Assembly (NCBI GenBank): GCA_965219535.1
Contig: CBDCNV010000001.1
Coordinates: forward strand, 630,001-662,000
Source of the DNA: Opitutales bacterium
GTDB taxonomy: Bacteria > Verrucomicrobiota > Verrucomicrobiia > Opitutales > PNEW01
Direction: 5' to 3'
DNA: 32,000 bases
Shown here piece by piece: positions 10,927-26,695 of this stretch; within the stretch, counting starts at the first letter, position 1, and each line of letters begins with the position of its first letter. The translations under genes and the position numbers were made by a program. Below the pieces are notes generated by a model that did not search any database, was not told where the DNA came from, and was given only the letters and a program-made list of their open reading frames with translations.

Positions 10927-11640
10927 TCATTCCTGGGAATCGCGCGGTCTATCATTTCCGGGGTTAGGCTGCCTCGACCGGGGTTTACCGCGCCTTCGAT
11001 TTCTCGATTGATTTAAATTCCGCGTTTCGCCATTGCCAGCGTTTGAGTTACTGCCTCTCACCTGATTGCGATTTCCCCTATTCCGACCGTCGCGGCGATT
11101 TTTGTTACTGCTTTGACTCTGATCACTATCCCGATTGCCCTGACGATTCCGGGTATCATTATTATTGTTCCCGCCTTGTCGGCGATTTCTACCTCCTGAA
11201 CGTCGATTCCGATAGTTTTTTCTATAGCGTCCTCTTCTCCCTTGCTGATCTCCAGATTTGCGCTGAGGGAAATCAGGAAGAAATAAATAACTAAACAAGA
11301 TTTTAATATATCCTAAAAGCGATCGTATTATGTTCTTACGCGGATACGGGGCAGATTTTTTATTTTCATAGCGCCGACTGGAGACATAGGGTTTGTAAGG
11401 TGTAGGTTTACTTTGTTTAACATCTACAATTCTTTGCCTTGGCTTATTCTCTTGTCTTTCGGATTTCTGATTTTCCCGCCGGCGTGGTGTGTATTCGATA
11501 ACTTCACCATCATGAGGTGCCATGGGTGATGAAGTCTGGCTTCCAGATTCAATGCTCCTTTGACCCGGACTTCCCTTTGAACTGTCGTTATCATTGTCTT
11601 CGCTTGAATTATCGTTAATTGGATTGAGAAATTCTGGCAT
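10927..11640 (-). CDS. Hypothetical low-complexity protein: acidic N-terminus, one hydrophobic segment, R/N/G/Q/S-rich basic C-terminal half
   Basis: 237-codon ORF ending 9 nt before the murA start on the same strand. No recognisable domain. The C-terminal half consists of RNR/GRNR/NRR-type repeats. Confidence 0.55.
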   Translation of the reverse strand: MPEFLNPINDNSSEDNDNDSSKGSPGQRSIESGSQTSSPMAPHDGEVIEYTPRRRENQKSERQENKPRQRIVDVKQSKPTPYKPYVSSRRYENKKSAPYPRKNIIRSLLGYIKILFSYLFLPDFPQRKSGDQQGRRGRYRKNYRNRRSGGRNRRQGGNNNNDTRNRQGNRDSDQSQSSNKNRRDGRNRGNRNQVRGSNSNAGNGETRNLNQSRNRRRGKPRSRQPNPGNDRPRDSQE

Positions 11641-11981
11641 AATATAAATGCAAAATATAATTAAATTTGCTTAAAATGTGATTCGTTTTAACCCTCGATT
11701 CTCGATGTTTTCTACCATCAAACCCATATCCGGGCCATTAACAGGATTCAGATGAACTGAATTTAATAGGCAAACCCGATTTTGATGGATTTTATTAGAA
11801 TTAGGTCTCCTAAAGAATGGTTCAGCATGGTGATTTTTTAATAAGTCTCAATCATTTTTTAATGGGAATCGATTTTATTGAGTCTATTTTATATGTATTA
11901 TTGTCACATCGTGTAATCCATTGCAGACAACTAAAAGAACTTGCGTTTGATAATCACCTAAATGATACATAACTTTAAGGT

Positions 11982-12353
11982 ATGGACAAATTAGACGAAA
12001 TCTTTGATTTGCAAGATTCCCTCAACCAGCGTATCGGAGTGGATACGACAAACCTCTCAGACGAAGATAAAACTAAGTGGATTCTGAATTATACGCGGGC
12101 TATGCAACAGGAATTAGCAGAACTCGTCGATTCTGTTCCCTGGAAATGGTGGGCGAAATATCAGAAGTTTGATGAACAGAATGCTAAAGTCGAAATAGTC
12201 GATCTTTTTCACTTTCTTACCTCTCTCGCCCTCGTGATGGGAATGACCCCTGATGATGTTCATTCTGCATACCTTAAAAAGAATGAAGTTAATATTAAGC
12301 GTCAGGATAGCGGTTATAGAGCTAAGGATTTAGACGACTCCAAGCATATCTAA
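11982..12353 (+). CDS. All-alpha NTP pyrophosphohydrolase, dimeric-dUTPase-like (MazG superfamily)
   Basis: FDLQDSLNQRI, ELAELVDSVPWKWW and EIVDLFHFL motifs resemble the dimeric dUTPase/dCTPase family. Confidence 0.6.
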   Translation: MDKLDEIFDLQDSLNQRIGVDTTNLSDEDKTKWILNYTRAMQQELAELVDSVPWKWWAKYQKFDEQNAKVEIVDLFHFLTSLALVMGMTPDDVHSAYLKKNEVNIKRQDSGYRAKDLDDSKHI

Positions 12354-12451
12354 TGCCCTCTGATTTTATCGATCTTCTTTATAACGCTTTTTAATTTTAA
12401 TTTACTGATTGATCAATCTAATATTTTAAGGAGGGTGTAAAGAAGACCGTA

Positions 12452-13639
12452 TTATTTTTTTATAAAGAGCGCGAGTGAGGCGGTATAGCCATGTAAATAA
12501 CTATTATCGCCAACAGGGCCTATCTCACCGTTACAGAAGAAACCATTCAGGGGCAAGGGTCCAAGATGTTTTTGCACAAGTCCGGCGTCATGATTTGGCT
12601 GTCCAAATAGTCCTTCACCACGACCGTTACACGAGCACAGGCAGGCACCATAGATCGTAGTGTCGGCTAATTTATTTTTCTCACTCAGTAACATTTCATC
12701 CATGTCTTCGGATGCGGCCTGGGCATCTCTCAATTGAAATTGTATCGTCTGTCCCACGCGTGGATAAGCGCCGATGGCAATAGAACCCTTTTTGGGGTCA
12801 CCTCCAATTAAATTGCGAATGAGGAAATCGCCTCTTCCGAAATCTTCCCTGTATTCATCAATAACCAAACCAGTAAAGAGGTTACGATTTGCACGCGCTT
12901 TTATTTCGTCGGGTAAATCGTTTAAAGTATCAACAAGCAGATCAAAAGCGGGCCGGTTTCCGATTTTATGAATAATATTTTCTTCTACTTGTGTGATCGT
13001 CCAAGTTTCACCTATTGGCGTGCAACCTTGGGATATGATACTTTTTAAAGCGATATCACCGCCAACGGATAATGCGACCACGCCTTCATCGAATATCGTC
13101 CCGTCAAGGTAAAGAAAAGTCTGGTGTTCACCCGGATTACCGCTGGCCAGCCCGCCAACAATCGGTTTTGGCGCAAATGCAGTATTCCAGGCATCAAGCC
13201 ACTTATCACTTCTCAAGTGAAAGGGATCAGCGAAAAGCAGCCACCCATTGTTTTCATTTTCGCTGCCACCTGTTAATTTCAAGAGGGAGTCATCTTCCTC
13301 CAGATTATTAACCTGATCCGCGTTGAGCGCAAAGGCACGCAGATCAGCTCCGGGCAGGTGAAAAAGGGAGAGGGCCATTCCACCCCGCTGTTCGATCTCC
13401 TCACCATTGATAATGATTCCATGACTGCTGCAGCCCATGAGTAGAGGAACACGGGCATGGACACGAATTATTTCCATGACTTTATGCGCGTGCTCGAACA
13501 AAGGAGGTGTTAGAAATATCAAACCCAACGACACCTTTTCATCGATTAATTGCTTGCGCAGCTCTTCGGCCCAGGATTCGAGTTTATTTTCTTTAAAGTC
13601 CTGGTCCCAAAGTGCGGATATAGCGTAAGATTGGGGCAT
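12452..13639 (-). CDS. FIST-domain (FIST_N + FIST_C) sensor-type protein
   Basis: Size and the C-terminal ...LNGFFCNGEIGPVG...SYLHGYTASLALF are characteristic of the FIST_C ending. Confidence 0.7.
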   Translation of the reverse strand: MPQSYAISALWDQDFKENKLESWAEELRKQLIDEKVSLGLIFLTPPLFEHAHKVMEIIRVHARVPLLMGCSSHGIIINGEEIEQRGGMALSLFHLPGADLRAFALNADQVNNLEEDDSLLKLTGGSENENNGWLLFADPFHLRSDKWLDAWNTAFAPKPIVGGLASGNPGEHQTFLYLDGTIFDEGVVALSVGGDIALKSIISQGCTPIGETWTITQVEENIIHKIGNRPAFDLLVDTLNDLPDEIKARANRNLFTGLVIDEYREDFGRGDFLIRNLIGGDPKKGSIAIGAYPRVGQTIQFQLRDAQAASEDMDEMLLSEKNKLADTTIYGACLCSCNGRGEGLFGQPNHDAGLVQKHLGPLPLNGFFCNGEIGPVGDNSYLHGYTASLALFIKK

Positions 13640-23057: not shown

Positions 23058-23164
23058 TTCGCGTTATAGTCTTGTTAAAATAATTAATTCCAGGGTCACA
23101 TCCGGATGACATTTATCAAAAAGTATAATTGTCATTTGCGTAAAAATAGTTCATTAGGTTGAAT

Positions 23165-23677
23165 ATGCCAAAGGAGAGGAAATGCGTAGAGTGTGACAAG
23201 ACGGGGTCGATACATGTTTCAATTGTCTTGGGCGGTAAATTAACGACTGAAAGTTATTGCCGAGCACACGCCGAACAATGCGGTGTTATCCAATCATCAG
23301 GTTACGATTTACTCGGTCTGGGAAATATCGAAGAAGAAGTAGCGGTTCAACTTGAATTGAACGTTCTGCGTTGTGAAAGCTGCGGTTGCTCTCAACATGA
23401 TTTTGAAAAATCTGGTCGCTTAGGCTGCCCTCAATGCTATCTCACTTTTGGAACTTTACTTAATCCATTGTTGAATAAAATGCATGCGGGAAGTAGTCAC
23501 TTAGGAAAAATTCCAGAAAAAGCTATCGCGGAAAATCTTCTTCACAACCGTATCAAGCATCTTGAAACTCAACTCCAAGATGCAGTTACGAATGAACATT
23601 ATGAAGACGCGGCTCAATACCGTGATAAGATTAATGAATTTAAACAACTTGCCGCCCAGTCCGTGAAAAAGAATTAA
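23165..23677 (+). CDS. UvrB/UvrC-motif protein, McsA-like (zinc-ribbon CxxC pairs + UVR domain)
   Basis: CVEC...C......C and CESC...CPQC cysteine pairs, then a C-terminal HYEDAAQYRDKINEFK UVR motif. The track start is TTG at 23159; ATG at 23165 is preferred. Confidence 0.65.
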   Translation: MPKERKCVECDKTGSIHVSIVLGGKLTTESYCRAHAEQCGVIQSSGYDLLGLGNIEEEVAVQLELNVLRCESCGCSQHDFEKSGRLGCPQCYLTFGTLLNPLLNKMHAGSSHLGKIPEKAIAENLLHNRIKHLETQLQDAVTNEHYEDAAQYRDKINEFKQLAAQSVKKN

Positions 23678-23793: not shown

Positions 23794-23813
23794 TTAAAAT
23801 ACGCTTGATAAAT
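23794..23813 (-). other. Detached native 3' end (LSSVF-stop) of the cytochrome-porin gene, separated from the gene by the IS insertion
   Basis: Joining 23813 to 25105 (removing the IS and one AAAT copy) makes the reverse-strand frame read ...GAC CTA TTC GTT ATT GAT TTA TCA AGC GTA TTT TAA, which is DLFVIDLSSVF*. Confidence 0.7.
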
Positions 23814-23880
23814 TGGTCGTGACCACGAAAACTGGTCCACTAGAAAAGTTAGTCTGGGACACCTAGAAAGGACTCAGACA

Positions 23881-25092
23881 ATGAAAGGCAAAAGATATAC
23901 AACCGAAGAGAAGATACGGATGCTGCGGCAGGCAGACAAAGGGAAAACGATCCTGGAAGTATGCCGCGAGAACAACATAAGCGAACAGACCTTCCACCGC
24001 TGGAAACGTGAACTTGGGATGATTGATGTCAACCAGGCCAAGCGGATGAAGGAACTCTTTGAAGGAGAACGCGCGGTTAAAGCGGATGCTGGCGGACAAG
24101 CTGCTGGGGATAGAGATTGTGCAGGAGACGCTCGAAAAAAAACTGTAAGCCCTGGGCACAAGCGGCAAGTGGCAGAGAGACTTGTGGCCCGGGGCCAGTG
24201 TTCGATACGTGGAGCGTGCCGATACTTTCACCTGCACCGCTCCACCTATGCGTATCGGGCGAAGTATCCTGATGCCTGGCTAACGAAACTGAAGGCGGCA
24301 GTAAGGCGGTTATCACGGCAATACGCGAGGTGGGGCTATCCGAAGATCACGAAGCTGTTGAAGGACGAAGGCTGGCAGGTGGGTAAACGGCTCGTGCAAG
24401 GTCTGCGACGTGAACTGGGCCTGGCGATTCCCCCACGCAAGCCAAGACGCCGGCGCAGGGGTGTCTCCACCGGGCTGCCGACGAAGGCCGAACATCCCGA
24501 CCATGTTTGGACCTGGGACTTTATCCACGATAAGACGGTCCGCGGTGGGAATCTCAAAATGCTCACCGTCCTTGACGAGTACACCCGCGAGTGCCGGGTG
24601 ATCCATGTCGATCGCCATATCAATGCGCAGAAGGTGCGCGGGGTCATGCAAAAACTGCTCGACCCTCATGGGCCGCCAAAATATATTCGCAGCGATAACG
24701 GTTCCGAGTTTATTGAAAAGGAATTGCGAACTTGGCTAACTGCGATGAAAATCAATACCCTCTATATCGAACCAGGAAGCCCTTGGCAGAACGGATACAT
24801 CGAATCGTTCCATGCCCGTTTTCGCGAGGAGTGTCTAAATCGTGAACAGCTGTGGACTTTGACCGAAGCCCGCGTGGTGATCGAAGATTGGCGCTGGCTT
24901 TACAATCATGTTCGACCCCACCGCAGCCTCGGCAATATTACTCCACAACGTTTCGCTCAAAACCTCAATACCGAAGGCTCGGGCTCCATTCGGGCTACGC
25001 CCTCATTGCGCCCAAGCCTTGACTTCCTCTACCAACTTAACTTCAACATTAACCTCTCCAGACTAACTCTCTCAGTGGACCAGTTTGTGTAA
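23881..25092 (+). CDS. IS3-family transposase as one uninterrupted 403-codon frame (HTH + scrambled linker + DDE/RNase-H OrfB)
   Basis: N-terminal HTH (RYTTEEKIRMLRQADKGKTILEVCRENNISEQTFHRWKRE). OrfB motifs WTWDFIH, LTVLDEYTRE, IRSDNGSEF, PGSPWQNGYIESFH, YNHVRPHRSLG. The expected leucine zipper (KENARLKRMLADKLLGIEIVQETLEKKL*) is only readable in the +1 frame at 24062-24148. Confidence 0.85.
   Translation: MKGKRYTTEEKIRMLRQADKGKTILEVCRENNISEQTFHRWKRELGMIDVNQAKRMKELFEGERAVKADAGGQAAGDRDCAGDARKKTVSPGHKRQVAERLVARGQCSIRGACRYFHLHRSTYAYRAKYPDAWLTKLKAAVRRLSRQYARWGYPKITKLLKDEGWQVGKRLVQGLRRELGLAIPPRKPRRRRRGVSTGLPTKAEHPDHVWTWDFIHDKTVRGGNLKMLTVLDEYTRECRVIHVDRHINAQKVRGVMQKLLDPHGPPKYIRSDNGSEFIEKELRTWLTAMKINTLYIEPGSPWQNGYIESFHARFREECLNREQLWTLTEARVVIEDWRWLYNHVRPHRSLGNITPQRFAQNLNTEGSGSIRATPSLRPSLDFLYQLNFNINLSRLTLSVDQFV
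24135..24195 (+). promoter_or_regulatory. Programmed -1 ribosomal frameshift signal of the IS (A8 slippery run + stem-loop)
   Basis: AAAAAAAA at 24135-24142 (A AAA AAA in the zipper frame) and an orfA-frame TAA at 24146-24148. An approximately 14-bp stem follows (24149-24162 pairing with 24181-24195, one bulged G) 6 nt after the run. Confidence 0.6.
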
Positions 25093-26245
25093 CCCGACCA
25101 AAATCAATAACGAATAGGTCGTTGTTATCCTGGGCGCGATATTGAATCTGTAAAAAAAATGAATATTTCTGATTTGGCCCGCTTATTGTAAAATAAGGAA
25201 TATAGGCGGCTTCGCTCCTGGAATTTGTTACCTTTTCAACTCGCATACCTACTCCAGGCCTGATTTTATCCCACCATCTTGGTACATACTCTACCTCAAG
25301 ACTGTAGCGCATACGCGCCTCGCTTGACTCTGTATCGTCACCCCCGATTCCGGCGGTCACATACCAATCACCTGTGTTATAGCTTCCTAGGGCTGTAGCA
25401 AGCCAGCGATCGTCATCGACGAATGCATGTCCCCCAATTAAACTCATTCCTGTTTTATAATATGTTTCCAGGAACACGCCTTTGGGGCTACCTTCAAATT
25501 CGAAACTTGCAGTATCTTTCGCTTCGTCATTCAACGGAATAGAAAATTCTCCTGGAAATGGCACCGTTAATCCAAGAAAGAGCCTTTCAGATGCCGTTTT
25601 CCCCTTCAGTGCTTGATATTGCAAAGCTATACTTGGAGAACGCCCTGTGGGAGAAAACGATCTAAGCCCTTGAATACGTGAATCTGCTGTTTGATCGCCC
25701 GGTAAAGAATTTTTAAATAGAGTCGGTTCGCTAGGAGAGAGTCTCAAAGAGACATCTACCTGATTAAGCGCGCGAAACTGTCCTACTTTAAACGCCCATT
25801 GATCATCGATAGTCCATTGTACGAACAAGTCTTCAAATCGACCACTTCGGCTTTTGTGGCTTCCATCTGAATTTAAGCTTTCACTCACTACACGTGATTC
25901 TACAAAATAGGATAGCGGGGTGTTTCCAATTTTTCCGCCACTGATTAGCTCGACCTTAGGAAGAAAGAAATCTTCTACATTATTCTCTATCTTATCTTCA
26001 TATCGGGTGGTAAGCCAAACTGCTAGTGGAATGGTTTTCTTTTCTCCTTTACCAACCAAATCTGGCGCCTTATAACCTCGCGCTCGAAAATTTTCTCCCG
26101 TAAGGTTTAACTTTGGGACGGATGAGTGGCATTTAATGCAACTATTTTGCGTCATTCGGGCAAATTGCGGTGTTGCATATGCTGAATGCAAAAAAAACAA
26201 CACCCCGATTATCCCAAGTAATCTAGTCAAATTCCGGTTTTTCAT
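25049..26245 (-). CDS. Fused monoheme cytochrome c / outer-membrane beta-barrel protein (Cyc2-like), 3' end replaced by IS-derived codons
   Basis: Signal peptide (cleavage after ...HSAYA), ATPQFARMTQNSCIKCHSSVPKL (CxxCH followed by P-x-L), then about 350 aa of alternating-polarity, Gly/aromatic-rich barrel-like sequence. The last 17 residues (FGRVTQTGPLRELVWRG) are encoded by the IS right end and the duplicated target. Confidence 0.6.
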   Translation of the reverse strand: MKNRNLTRLLGIIGVLFFLHSAYATPQFARMTQNSCIKCHSSVPKLNLTGENFRARGYKAPDLVGKGEKKTIPLAVWLTTRYEDKIENNVEDFFLPKVELISGGKIGNTPLSYFVESRVVSESLNSDGSHKSRSGRFEDLFVQWTIDDQWAFKVGQFRALNQVDVSLRLSPSEPTLFKNSLPGDQTADSRIQGLRSFSPTGRSPSIALQYQALKGKTASERLFLGLTVPFPGEFSIPLNDEAKDTASFEFEGSPKGVFLETYYKTGMSLIGGHAFVDDDRWLATALGSYNTGDWYVTAGIGGDDTESSEARMRYSLEVEYVPRWWDKIRPGVGMRVEKVTNSRSEAAYIPYFTISGPNQKYSFFLQIQYRAQDNNDLFVIDFGRVTQTGPLRELVWRG

Positions 26246-26382
26246 AGCTGGTTTAAGTTAGTATCTATCGAGTTAAGCGGTTTAATTAGGTTCTAGGGCC
26301 AGGCCAAAGTTTTCAGTAGACACAATACAAGGAATATTTTTGATATATCAAACAAAAAATCATGAATTATCAAAATTGTTGA

Positions 26383-26695
26383 TCTCGTTGCCTCCGGATG
26401 CATCCCGAGTGCCTAAACTGTGAGAAACTATGTACTCTGACCGAAGCGTGCTTGGTCATCGAGGACCGGCACTGGAAATACAACCATTTGCACCTTTACA
26501 GCTCTCTTGGTTATCTCATGCTCATCCAGTTTGCTCAGAATGAAATAACAACCAGCTAACAAAATGACTAAGATCTGGGCTCCAGTCGGCTACGCCCTCA
26601 CTTCGCCAAGATCTCTCCTATACATCAATCCTAAAACCATTAACACCCGGTAACTCTCTCACTTAAAAATTGGTACGAAAAACGGGGGCCGATCA
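26383..26695 (+). pseudogene. Relic of a second, diverged IS3-family element: the last ~58 transposase codons plus the right terminal IR
   Basis: 26383-26559 reads SRCLRMHPECLNCEKLCTLTEACLVIEDRHWKYNHLHLYSSLGYLMLIQFAQNEITTS*. Roughly half of these residues match ...SFHARFREECLNREQLWTLTEARVVIEDWRWLYNHVRPHRSLGNITPQRFAQN of the intact copy. The downstream DNA parallels the intact right end (GGCTACGCCCTCA, TAACTCTCTCA) and ends ...GATCA at 26695. A stop lies immediately upstream. Confidence 0.75.

Follow-up and report, generated by a model that had tools for sequence, protein, structure and literature searches.

How did the gene for an outer-membrane cytochrome-porin come to end inside a transposable element, and what would this ending mean for the protein? 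We addressed these questions in a stretch of 32,000 nucleotides—hereafter called the window—from an Opitutales bacterium of the Verrucomicrobiota (GCA_965219535.1, CBDCNV010000001.1, positions 630,001–662,000, forward strand). In the window, a complete insertion sequence (IS) of the IS3 family interrupts the 3′ end of a cyc2-like gene, which is encoded on the minus strand. We consider it likely that the IS transposed into the end of cyc2, that the gene thereby lost a tail matching the β-signal in part and was left probably null or hypomorphic, and that the event belongs to an IS-driven erosion of the locus. On this reading, an IS3-family element that is actively transposing placed one of its copies 16 nt before the cyc2 stop codon, by ordinary cut/copy-and-paste transposition, and duplicated the 4-bp target AAAT.

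Insertion site and target-site duplication

Where exactly did the element land? Two sets of relatives retain the empty site: L001/L002, which encode the protein P0002 and share 95% nucleotide identity with the window, and L046/L047 (the Opitutales metagenome-assembled genome (MAG) OY829953 and a second assembly), which encode P0121 and share 94–96%. Two assemblies from other samples are nearly identical to the window, L003 (99.98% identical over 16,952 nt) and L048 (99.93% over 5,762 nt). The features at the insertion site are:

23814–25100, plus strand: complete IS3-family insertion sequence of 1,287 bp, from its termini, transposase model and domains
23810–23813, no strand: left copy of the target-site duplication AAAT, aligning to the single ATTT in L001 and L046
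25101–25104, no strand: right copy of the target-site duplication AAAT, aligning to the same single ATTT in L001 and L046
23794–23813, minus strand: detached 3′ tail of cyc2, comprising the codons (L)SSVF and the stop codon, with one duplication copy included, from in silico excision
25101–26245, minus strand: native part of the cyc2-like gene, codons 1–381, without internal stop or frameshift and colinear with the 386-residue orthologues
25049–26245, minus strand: present chimeric open reading frame (ORF) of 398 residues, with the IS-encoded end FGRVTQTGPLRELVWRG

An earlier note, made from the letters of the window, had claimed that excision of the IS and one repeat copy lets the gene read through to its own stop codon. 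The in silico deletion of 23814–25104 does yield a minus-strand ORF of 386 residues, ending …DNNDLFVIDLSSVF*. The empty site reads GTTATTGATTTATCAAGCGTATTTTAA in L001/L002 and CATTATTGATTTATCAAGTGTATTTTAA in L046/L047, with one ATTT at each of these two independent sites. In the BLAST alignment, positions 25104–25101 and 23813–23810 of the window both align to positions 11142–11145 of L046. Because both flanks map onto the same 4 bp of the empty sites, the AAAT direct repeat around the IS is a genuine target-site duplication, as the note had proposed.

The junctions recur in L003 and L048, and are thus reproduced in independent long contigs, for a total of three assemblies from different samples. 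Could they nevertheless be an assembly artefact with a misplaced IS copy, or could the AAAT repeat be coincidental, the IS having arrived by recombination between copies? Many other copies of the element lack a clean duplication, which suggests later recombination between copies, and so recombination or repeat assembly problems do occur; going by the contig name, moreover, the coverage is about 9×. The identical junctions in three assemblies from different samples, however, together with the placement of both flanks on one contiguous empty site in two relatives, at the same 4 bp, constitute the signature of transposition, and make this alternative extremely improbable.

Termini and family of the element

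The termini and the transposase identify the element:

23814–23857, plus strand: left terminal inverted repeat, pairing with 25058–25100
25058–25100, minus strand: right terminal inverted repeat, which also provides the last 17 codons and the stop codon of the chimeric ORF
23881–25092, plus strand: single transposase ORF of 403 residues, in which the orfA helix-turn-helix (HTH) is fused straight to the orfB DDE domain

The plus strand of the IS starts with TGGTCGTGACCACGAAAACTGGTCCAC and ends with GTGGACCAGTTTGTGTAACCCGACCA. The terminal inverted repeats are imperfect, about 43 nt long with one indel, and are outermost TGGTCG…CGACCA. Their core, AAACTGGTCCACT-N5-AGTTAGTCTGG, is present at both ends of the IS, where none is expected by chance. 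A pattern scan of the GTDB species-representative genomes found this core in 32 stretches, all from MAGs of the Opitutales, Opitutae or Coraliomargaritaceae. In Opitutales MAGs, seventeen full-length copies have TGGTCG as their start and (A/C)CCA as their end, precisely at the positions of the window copy, and 10 more copies from the same or sister assemblies have the same termini. The ends defined by these 27 other copies fall precisely where the earlier note had placed them, and its coordinates and sequences were correct throughout.

Against the NCBIfam model of IS3 transposases, NF033516, the encoded protein reaches 249 bits (cut-off 160), and it contains the HTH_Tnp_1, HTH_21, rve and rve_3 domains. 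The IS3 family is marked by a DDE/rve model score, 5′-TG…CA-3′ inverted repeats and a short (3–5 bp) target duplication, all of which we found. The DDE (rve) transposase with its N-terminal HTH, the TG…CA termini, the imperfect inverted repeats of about 40 bp, the length of about 1.3 kb and the 4-bp target duplication are all like those of the family, in which the IS407 group makes a 4-bp duplication. Perfect 4-bp duplications also surround other copies, namely GCAG (L020), GTTT (L034) and CGTA (L043/L044). The window element thus adds a new member, as yet without a name, to the IS3 family, and behaves as such elements do.

The interrupted gene

What does the interrupted gene encode? According to the published definition (Keffer et al. 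2021, PMC8406198), Cyc2 combines a signal peptide, a single CXXCH motif and a 16-stranded porin in at least 365 residues, with AXPXFAR[Q/K][T/Y] five residues before CXXCH and PXL four residues after it. In its 398-residue form, the window protein is identical to P0122 residue for residue, and P0122 is probably encoded on the source contig of the window. The protein carries the signal peptide MKNRNLTRLLGIIGVLFFLHSAYA|TPQ… (called by eye) and the following motif, its sole CXXCH:

26126–26140, minus strand: CIKCH heme-binding motif, residues 36–40, with C36, C39 and H40 invariant in 81 homologues

We searched 5.8 billion proteins and obtained 761 matches at E ≤ 0.001, of which the best 120 were listed; residue invariance was counted in an alignment of 81 homologous sequences. 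The conserved N-terminus in this alignment reads A-x-P-Q-F-A-R-x3-L-S-C-x-x-C-H-x-x-P-P-K-L-N, and the window protein has the corresponding string ATPQFARMT-QNS-CIKCH-SSV-PKL. The Met at the [Q/K] position is the one deviation, and the close homologues P0003–P0005 have Gln there. The signal peptide, the single CXXCH with both flanking motifs, the predicted 16-stranded porin C-terminal to the motif and the restored length of 386 residues were all found. Judged by motifs and predicted fold, the window gene is therefore a Cyc2 fused cytochrome-porin by the published definition, with Met at the [Q/K] position.

Domain libraries recognize this family poorly. None of the 120 listed homologues carries a precomputed Pfam domain; the window protein itself has only a sub-threshold Porin_O_P hit (17 bits) in Pfam, and NCBIfam gave no match for the porin. 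A PDB sequence search with the family profile returned nothing significant, its best hit (E-value 0.15) being the heme motif of a multiheme cytochrome. The AlphaFold model of the intact orthologue P0002 has a mean pLDDT of 90.1 and a pTM of 0.87, with about 16 long strands, the last of which spans residues 377–385. Foldseek matched this model in the PDB with the 16-stranded porins OmpU, OmpT, Omp32, OmpF/C and OprB (E down to 8e-11, TM 0.5–0.6). The model, the porin matches and the Cyc2 motifs justify the label “cytochrome-porin” and the call of a barrel, both of which go back to the earlier note.

The likeness to the characterized Cyc2 proteins of Acidithiobacillus ferrooxidans and Mariprofundus (Cyc2PV-1), drawn by the motif definition and the predicted fold, comprises the signal peptide, one CXXCH, AXPXFAR..T, PXL and a predicted 16-stranded porin in 386 residues. 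In contrast, the window protein has Met for Gln/Lys in the motif, and the neighbours of the gene in its relatives are DtxR-type repressors and metal transporters rather than electron-transport genes. Covalent heme and Fe(II) oxidase activity also characterize Cyc2, and the window protein may share them; the host lineage is a heterotrophic type of Opitutales that is not known for iron oxidation.

The lost C-terminal tail

Which part of the barrel was lost? The C-terminal peptides are LFVIDLSSVF and LFVIDFGRVTQTGPLRELVWRG. P0002 and five other 386-residue proteins of its 90% cluster end with DNNDLFVIDLSSVF, while P0121, also of 386 residues, ends …FIIDLSSVF; the orthologues thus end near …IDLSSVF, as the reconstruction had led one to expect. 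The present ORF continues for 17 residues across the junction into the IS and ends …VIDFGRVTQTGPLRELVWRG* (DFGRVTQTGPLRELVWRG*), so that, in agreement with the earlier note, five native residues are exchanged for 17. The cut falls after the conserved Asp381 (position −5), inside the last strand (residues 377–385). The native L-S-S-V-F is replaced by F-G-R-V-T plus an extension of 12 residues, which puts Thr in place of the terminal Phe and, at position −2, an Arg that is never seen in the family.

The C-termini were counted in 119 homologues among the matches listed, leaving out the product of the window itself. The last residue is Phe in 117 and Tyr in one, and the lone remaining homologue looks truncated or frameshifted; 118 of the 119 end with [LIV]-F/Y. 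The last nine positions of the family follow the pattern [F/V/L][V/F][V/I/L]-D-[L/V]-[S/G]-x-[L/I/V]-F. Because these positions are conserved across the family, the alignment argues that the tail matters to the protein.

Is this tail the classical β-signal that the earlier note had called it? In the reconstruction, the last strand bears a terminal Phe, which is lost in the present allele. The strand ends in Phe, as PhoE does, and PhoE reportedly requires its C-terminal Phe; it is hydrophobic at positions −4, −6 and −8, and is strongly conserved across the family. The β-signal consensus on the final strand is zeta-x-G-x-x-[aromatic/hydrophobic]-x-[aromatic/hydrophobic] (PMC10945584). Unlike this consensus, the family has Asp at the Gly position (−5) in 108 of 118 homologues, and many proteins of the family have a small or polar residue at −2 (Ser in the window tail; A/T/L/M in the family). 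The designation therefore holds for the terminal Phe and the hydrophobic alternation, and fails at the Gly position and at −2.

Consequence for the chimeric protein

What would the new ending do? The chimeric protein has no terminal aromatic residue, would carry Arg at a position meant to face the lipid, and has an added extension. The β-barrel assembly machinery (BAM) would probably recognize or close such a barrel poorly, and in that case the gene would likely be null or hypomorphic. On our analysis, poor assembly with a null or hypomorphic gene is the probable outcome, given the conservation of the tail, the part played by the final strand in BAM recognition according to the work cited above, and the reported importance of the terminal Phe of PhoE. 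From the sequence, loss of function through the insertion is plausible. The gene that follows (23159–23677, encoding a UVR-domain protein) is convergent, so that the insertion should have no polar effect.

Several observations weigh against a damaged protein. The AlphaFold model of the 398-residue chimera keeps a strand at residues 377–387, with disorder confined to 388–398, so that such a geometry is possible. The chimeric residues at −4 (F), −3 (G) and −1 (V) are tolerated by the family at these positions. The native tail of the family is not a full match to the Escherichia coli β-signal consensus. The dN/dS ratio is 0.34 on the window branch, compared to 0.16 for L046 and 0.66 for L001; these counts are small and reveal no clear relaxation. 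Finally, Mariprofundus Cyc2PV-1 bearing a Strep tag at its C-terminus was still made with heme in E. coli (PMC8406198), so a C-terminal extension alone need not be fatal.

These observations would fit a real but near-neutral insertion, in which F-G-R-V-T completes the last strand, internal β-signals suffice, and the chimera assembles and works. Internal signals in other strands do aid assembly (PMC10945584), and the remaining ORF is intact. However, a terminal aromatic residue is present in 118 of the 119 homologues, Arg does not occur at −2, and AlphaFold is insensitive to changes of this kind. Moreover, a substitution at an invariant glycine is already present in one insertion-bearing strain:

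25585, minus strand: single-nucleotide polymorphism (SNP) giving G221R, at a glycine invariant in 81 homologues; T in the window, C in L003 and L048

Only three SNPs distinguish the window from L003 over 17 kb, and this one may be the earliest mark of decay following the insertion. We thus regard a near-neutral insertion as unlikely, and a poorly assembled protein as the probable result.

Age of the insertion

When did the insertion occur? It is absent from both relatives at about 95% identity, L001/L002 and L046/L047, and present in all three available assemblies at about 99.9% identity (the window, L003 and L048). By these comparisons, since the insertion is absent at about 95% and present at ≥99.9% identity, it is younger than about 5% nucleotide divergence, and it appears to be fixed in the sampled population. 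The duplication is perfect, and the 16 coding nt of the detached tail match L001 in full and L046 in all but one synonymous base.

The IS itself is 100% identical to the copies in L036, L037, L040 and L041, and 99.92% identical to six others, from which it differs by one synonymous SNP; copies at this level of identity (100% or 99.92%) lie at no fewer than five other sites, that is, at least 5. Ten more sites in ENA long-read assemblies encode the exact 403-residue transposase. Four of these belong to ERZ25072670, an assembly that also contains a contig with 99.98% identity to the window. Because the IS differs by 0–1 bases from these other copies, the element was active very recently. The word “recent” in the earlier note is thus borne out in the evolutionary sense only, by the near-identity of the copies, the perfect duplication and the absence of the insertion at 95%. 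The exact reconstructed 386-residue protein was not found in a collection of 15 billion proteins, in which an exact look-up would miss one-residue variants, and the 90% protein cluster contained no uninterrupted allele of the window strain.

A frameshift-free form of the element

The family usually, though not obligatorily, has two overlapping ORFs that are joined by programmed −1 frameshifting. The sibling copies of the window element are alike in having orfA/orfB and an A-run −1 frameshift site. In contrast, the window copy and its near-identical copies possess an extra base, through which the orfA HTH is joined to orfB with no frameshifting and the zipper-coding segment is read out of frame. 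The two sites involved are:

24055–24061, plus strand: CTCTTTG variant site, which reads CTC-GAG in the sibling copies, from an alignment of 18 copies
24135–24142, plus strand: A8 run, which serves the sibling copies as their canonical −1 frameshift site and is not needed in the window copy

Two forms of the element therefore exist. The canonical copies, including L004, L013, L020 and others, have CTC-GAG, an orfA ending …LEKKL*, and the A8 slippery run, with the orfA/orfB layout and −1 frameshift. Besides the window copy itself, L026, L031 and each of the ten near-identical same-assembly copies have the one-base-longer CTCTTTG form; it places the orfA start and HTH in the frame of orfB, and so encodes a 403-residue protein without the leucine-zipper segment. 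The window copy retains both the A8 run and the orfA stop codon, and becomes a single 403-residue ORF through the extra base at 24055–24061. We considered whether the change of frame was a sequencing error, an extra T beside a homopolymer, and rejected this because CTCTTTG recurs in other genomes (10 of 17 copies) and in all 10 same-assembly copies. Of the two forms, it is the frameshift-free one that multiplied recently.

Other variants were also observed. Most copies in the Opitutales MAG CBDANS01 share one and the same 31-nt insertion within the SDNGSEF motif of the DDE domain (IS position ~894), which breaks orfB, and are numerous even so (L004, L009, L012, L020, L028, L030, L033, L034 etc.). 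Four copies (L017, L018, L019 and L029) have a 23-nt insertion directly 3′ of the A8 frameshift site. Further near-identical copies break or abut genes (L039/L042, L038/L045 and L037/L041); in L039/L042, a TP_methylase gene is split by the IS into parts of 213 and 57 residues. The copies indicate that the IS expansion in the sampled population is ongoing.

Erosion of the surrounding locus

How does the insertion fit into the history of the locus? The loss of the cyc2 end would be one step in an IS-driven erosion, in which the adjacent genes for a DtxR-like repressor, OprB, a multicopper oxidase and a ZIP transporter were also lost. Two older features flank the gene:

26400–26695, plus strand: relic of the right-hand part of an older related IS, whose end at 26695 bounds a 4,660-bp difference from L046
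23683–23745, plus strand: solo inverted repeat resembling the end of an IS of a second type, with the cyc2 tail on one side and the UVR-domain gene on the other

L046/L047 preserve the gene order of the window on both flanks: one flank has UvrC, a cNMP-binding protein, AhpC, SnoaL and a TonB-dependent receptor, and the opposite flank the UVR-domain protein, a CN-hydrolase and an aminotransferase. A block of 4,660 bp (L046 4893–9552) that the window lacks separates their TonB receptor gene from cyc2. It contains genes for a 131-residue protein, a ZIP transporter, a two-domain multicopper oxidase, an OprB porin and a DtxR-type repressor. In the window, the break at 26695 coincides exactly with the terminus (TGATCG…) of the relic IS, a relic present in both lineages and 74% identical to the present IS over an 81-nt transposase-coding repeat (26407–26487). 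A break of this kind is what an IS-mediated adjacent deletion should leave behind, which suggests that such a deletion removed the block.

L046 carries a full IS of the second type at 11225–12499, with the ends TGACCTG…CAGGTCA and the duplication TTTT, right beside the solo repeat. Because the insertions in the window and L046 differ and lie about 80 bp apart, the two lineages took independent IS hits. The site looks like an IS hot spot, possibly via targeting of inverted-repeat-like sequences. The two older features could be read as the two ends of one old IS around the gene; this was rejected, as they are separate features in L046, are relics of different IS types, and both predate the split from L046.

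The homology to L001 ends 7 nt after the cyc2 stop codon. Directly after cyc2, L001 (1283–1626) and the deltaproteobacterial L050 (7204–8073) have a gene for a Phenol_MetA_deg-like outer-membrane porin, and this pairing is lost in the window and in L046.

Was the gene already dispensable or silenced through the loss of its partner and regulator genes, so that the IS is a neutral passenger in a decaying locus? The DtxR-like, OprB, copper-oxidase, ZIP and 131-residue block stands beside an intact gene in L046/L047 and is absent from the window, the break lies exactly at the relic terminus, and the Phenol_MetA_deg-like gene of L001 and L050 is missing as well. However, the deletion and the insertion could have come in either order, and L046 also has no downstream gene, with its cyc2 intact. 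In addition, neither a stop nor a frameshift occurs in the 381 native codons, and conservation extends over the promoter-proximal 107 bp with the palindrome described below. A prior loss of importance is possible, although we do not think it likely, and we continue to favour an IS that itself damaged the gene. The near-identical copies, several of which break genes, and the deletion ending exactly at an IS terminus are alike to what IS-mediated inactivation and adjacent deletion produce during IS expansion, and we saw nothing unusual in this respect.

A possible role in metal homeostasis, and significance

What might a Cyc2 protein do in such a host? We inspected seven neighbourhoods of homologues. 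Three contain a DtxR-type repressor (L046, L050 and L052), with a ZnuA/ABC-3 transporter also in L050; one (L055) contains Czc, CsoR, MerT and CopZ genes; and the other three contain nothing metal-related. This gene content hints at a role of the Cyc2 family in metal homeostasis outside the known iron oxidizers. A candidate operator is the palindrome TTTGATATATCAAA, at about 26337–26354 of the window. It precedes the cyc2 start codon by some 95 nt, and the window shares it with L046 and L001, in which it is conserved.

One tentative proposal, which we consider doubtful, is that Cyc2 in heterotrophic lineages is part of DtxR/MntR-controlled metal modules, together with ZIP or ZnuA-type transporters, a multicopper oxidase, and OprB or MetA-like porins, and is not a respiratory iron oxidase. 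The module in the window would then have been dismantled stepwise by IS elements, the repressor–transporter block first and the β-signal of cyc2 afterwards. If this is true, the locus provides a natural allele series for testing the function of Cyc2 outside the iron oxidizers.

The conserved C-terminus also bears on gene annotation. FeGenie checks only the heme motif and the length (PMC8406198). The chimeric 398-residue ORF keeps its CXXCH and exceeds 365 residues. Because pipelines of this type check only these two properties, they would probably score the ORF as an intact cyc2 and a functional iron-oxidation marker. The strongly conserved C-terminal strand of the family, [VIL]D[LV][SG]x[LIV]F, which the published definition does not mention (PMC8406198), could be used to separate intact from damaged cyc2 calls in metagenome surveys.

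The event itself is a routine IS knock-out, an ordinary gene disruption. The locus offers a dated, stepwise case of the IS-driven erosion of a metal-homeostasis cluster in the Verrucomicrobiota, and the more interesting leads are the frameshift-free variant of the IS, the conserved C-terminus of Cyc2, and the association of Cyc2 with metal-homeostasis genes.

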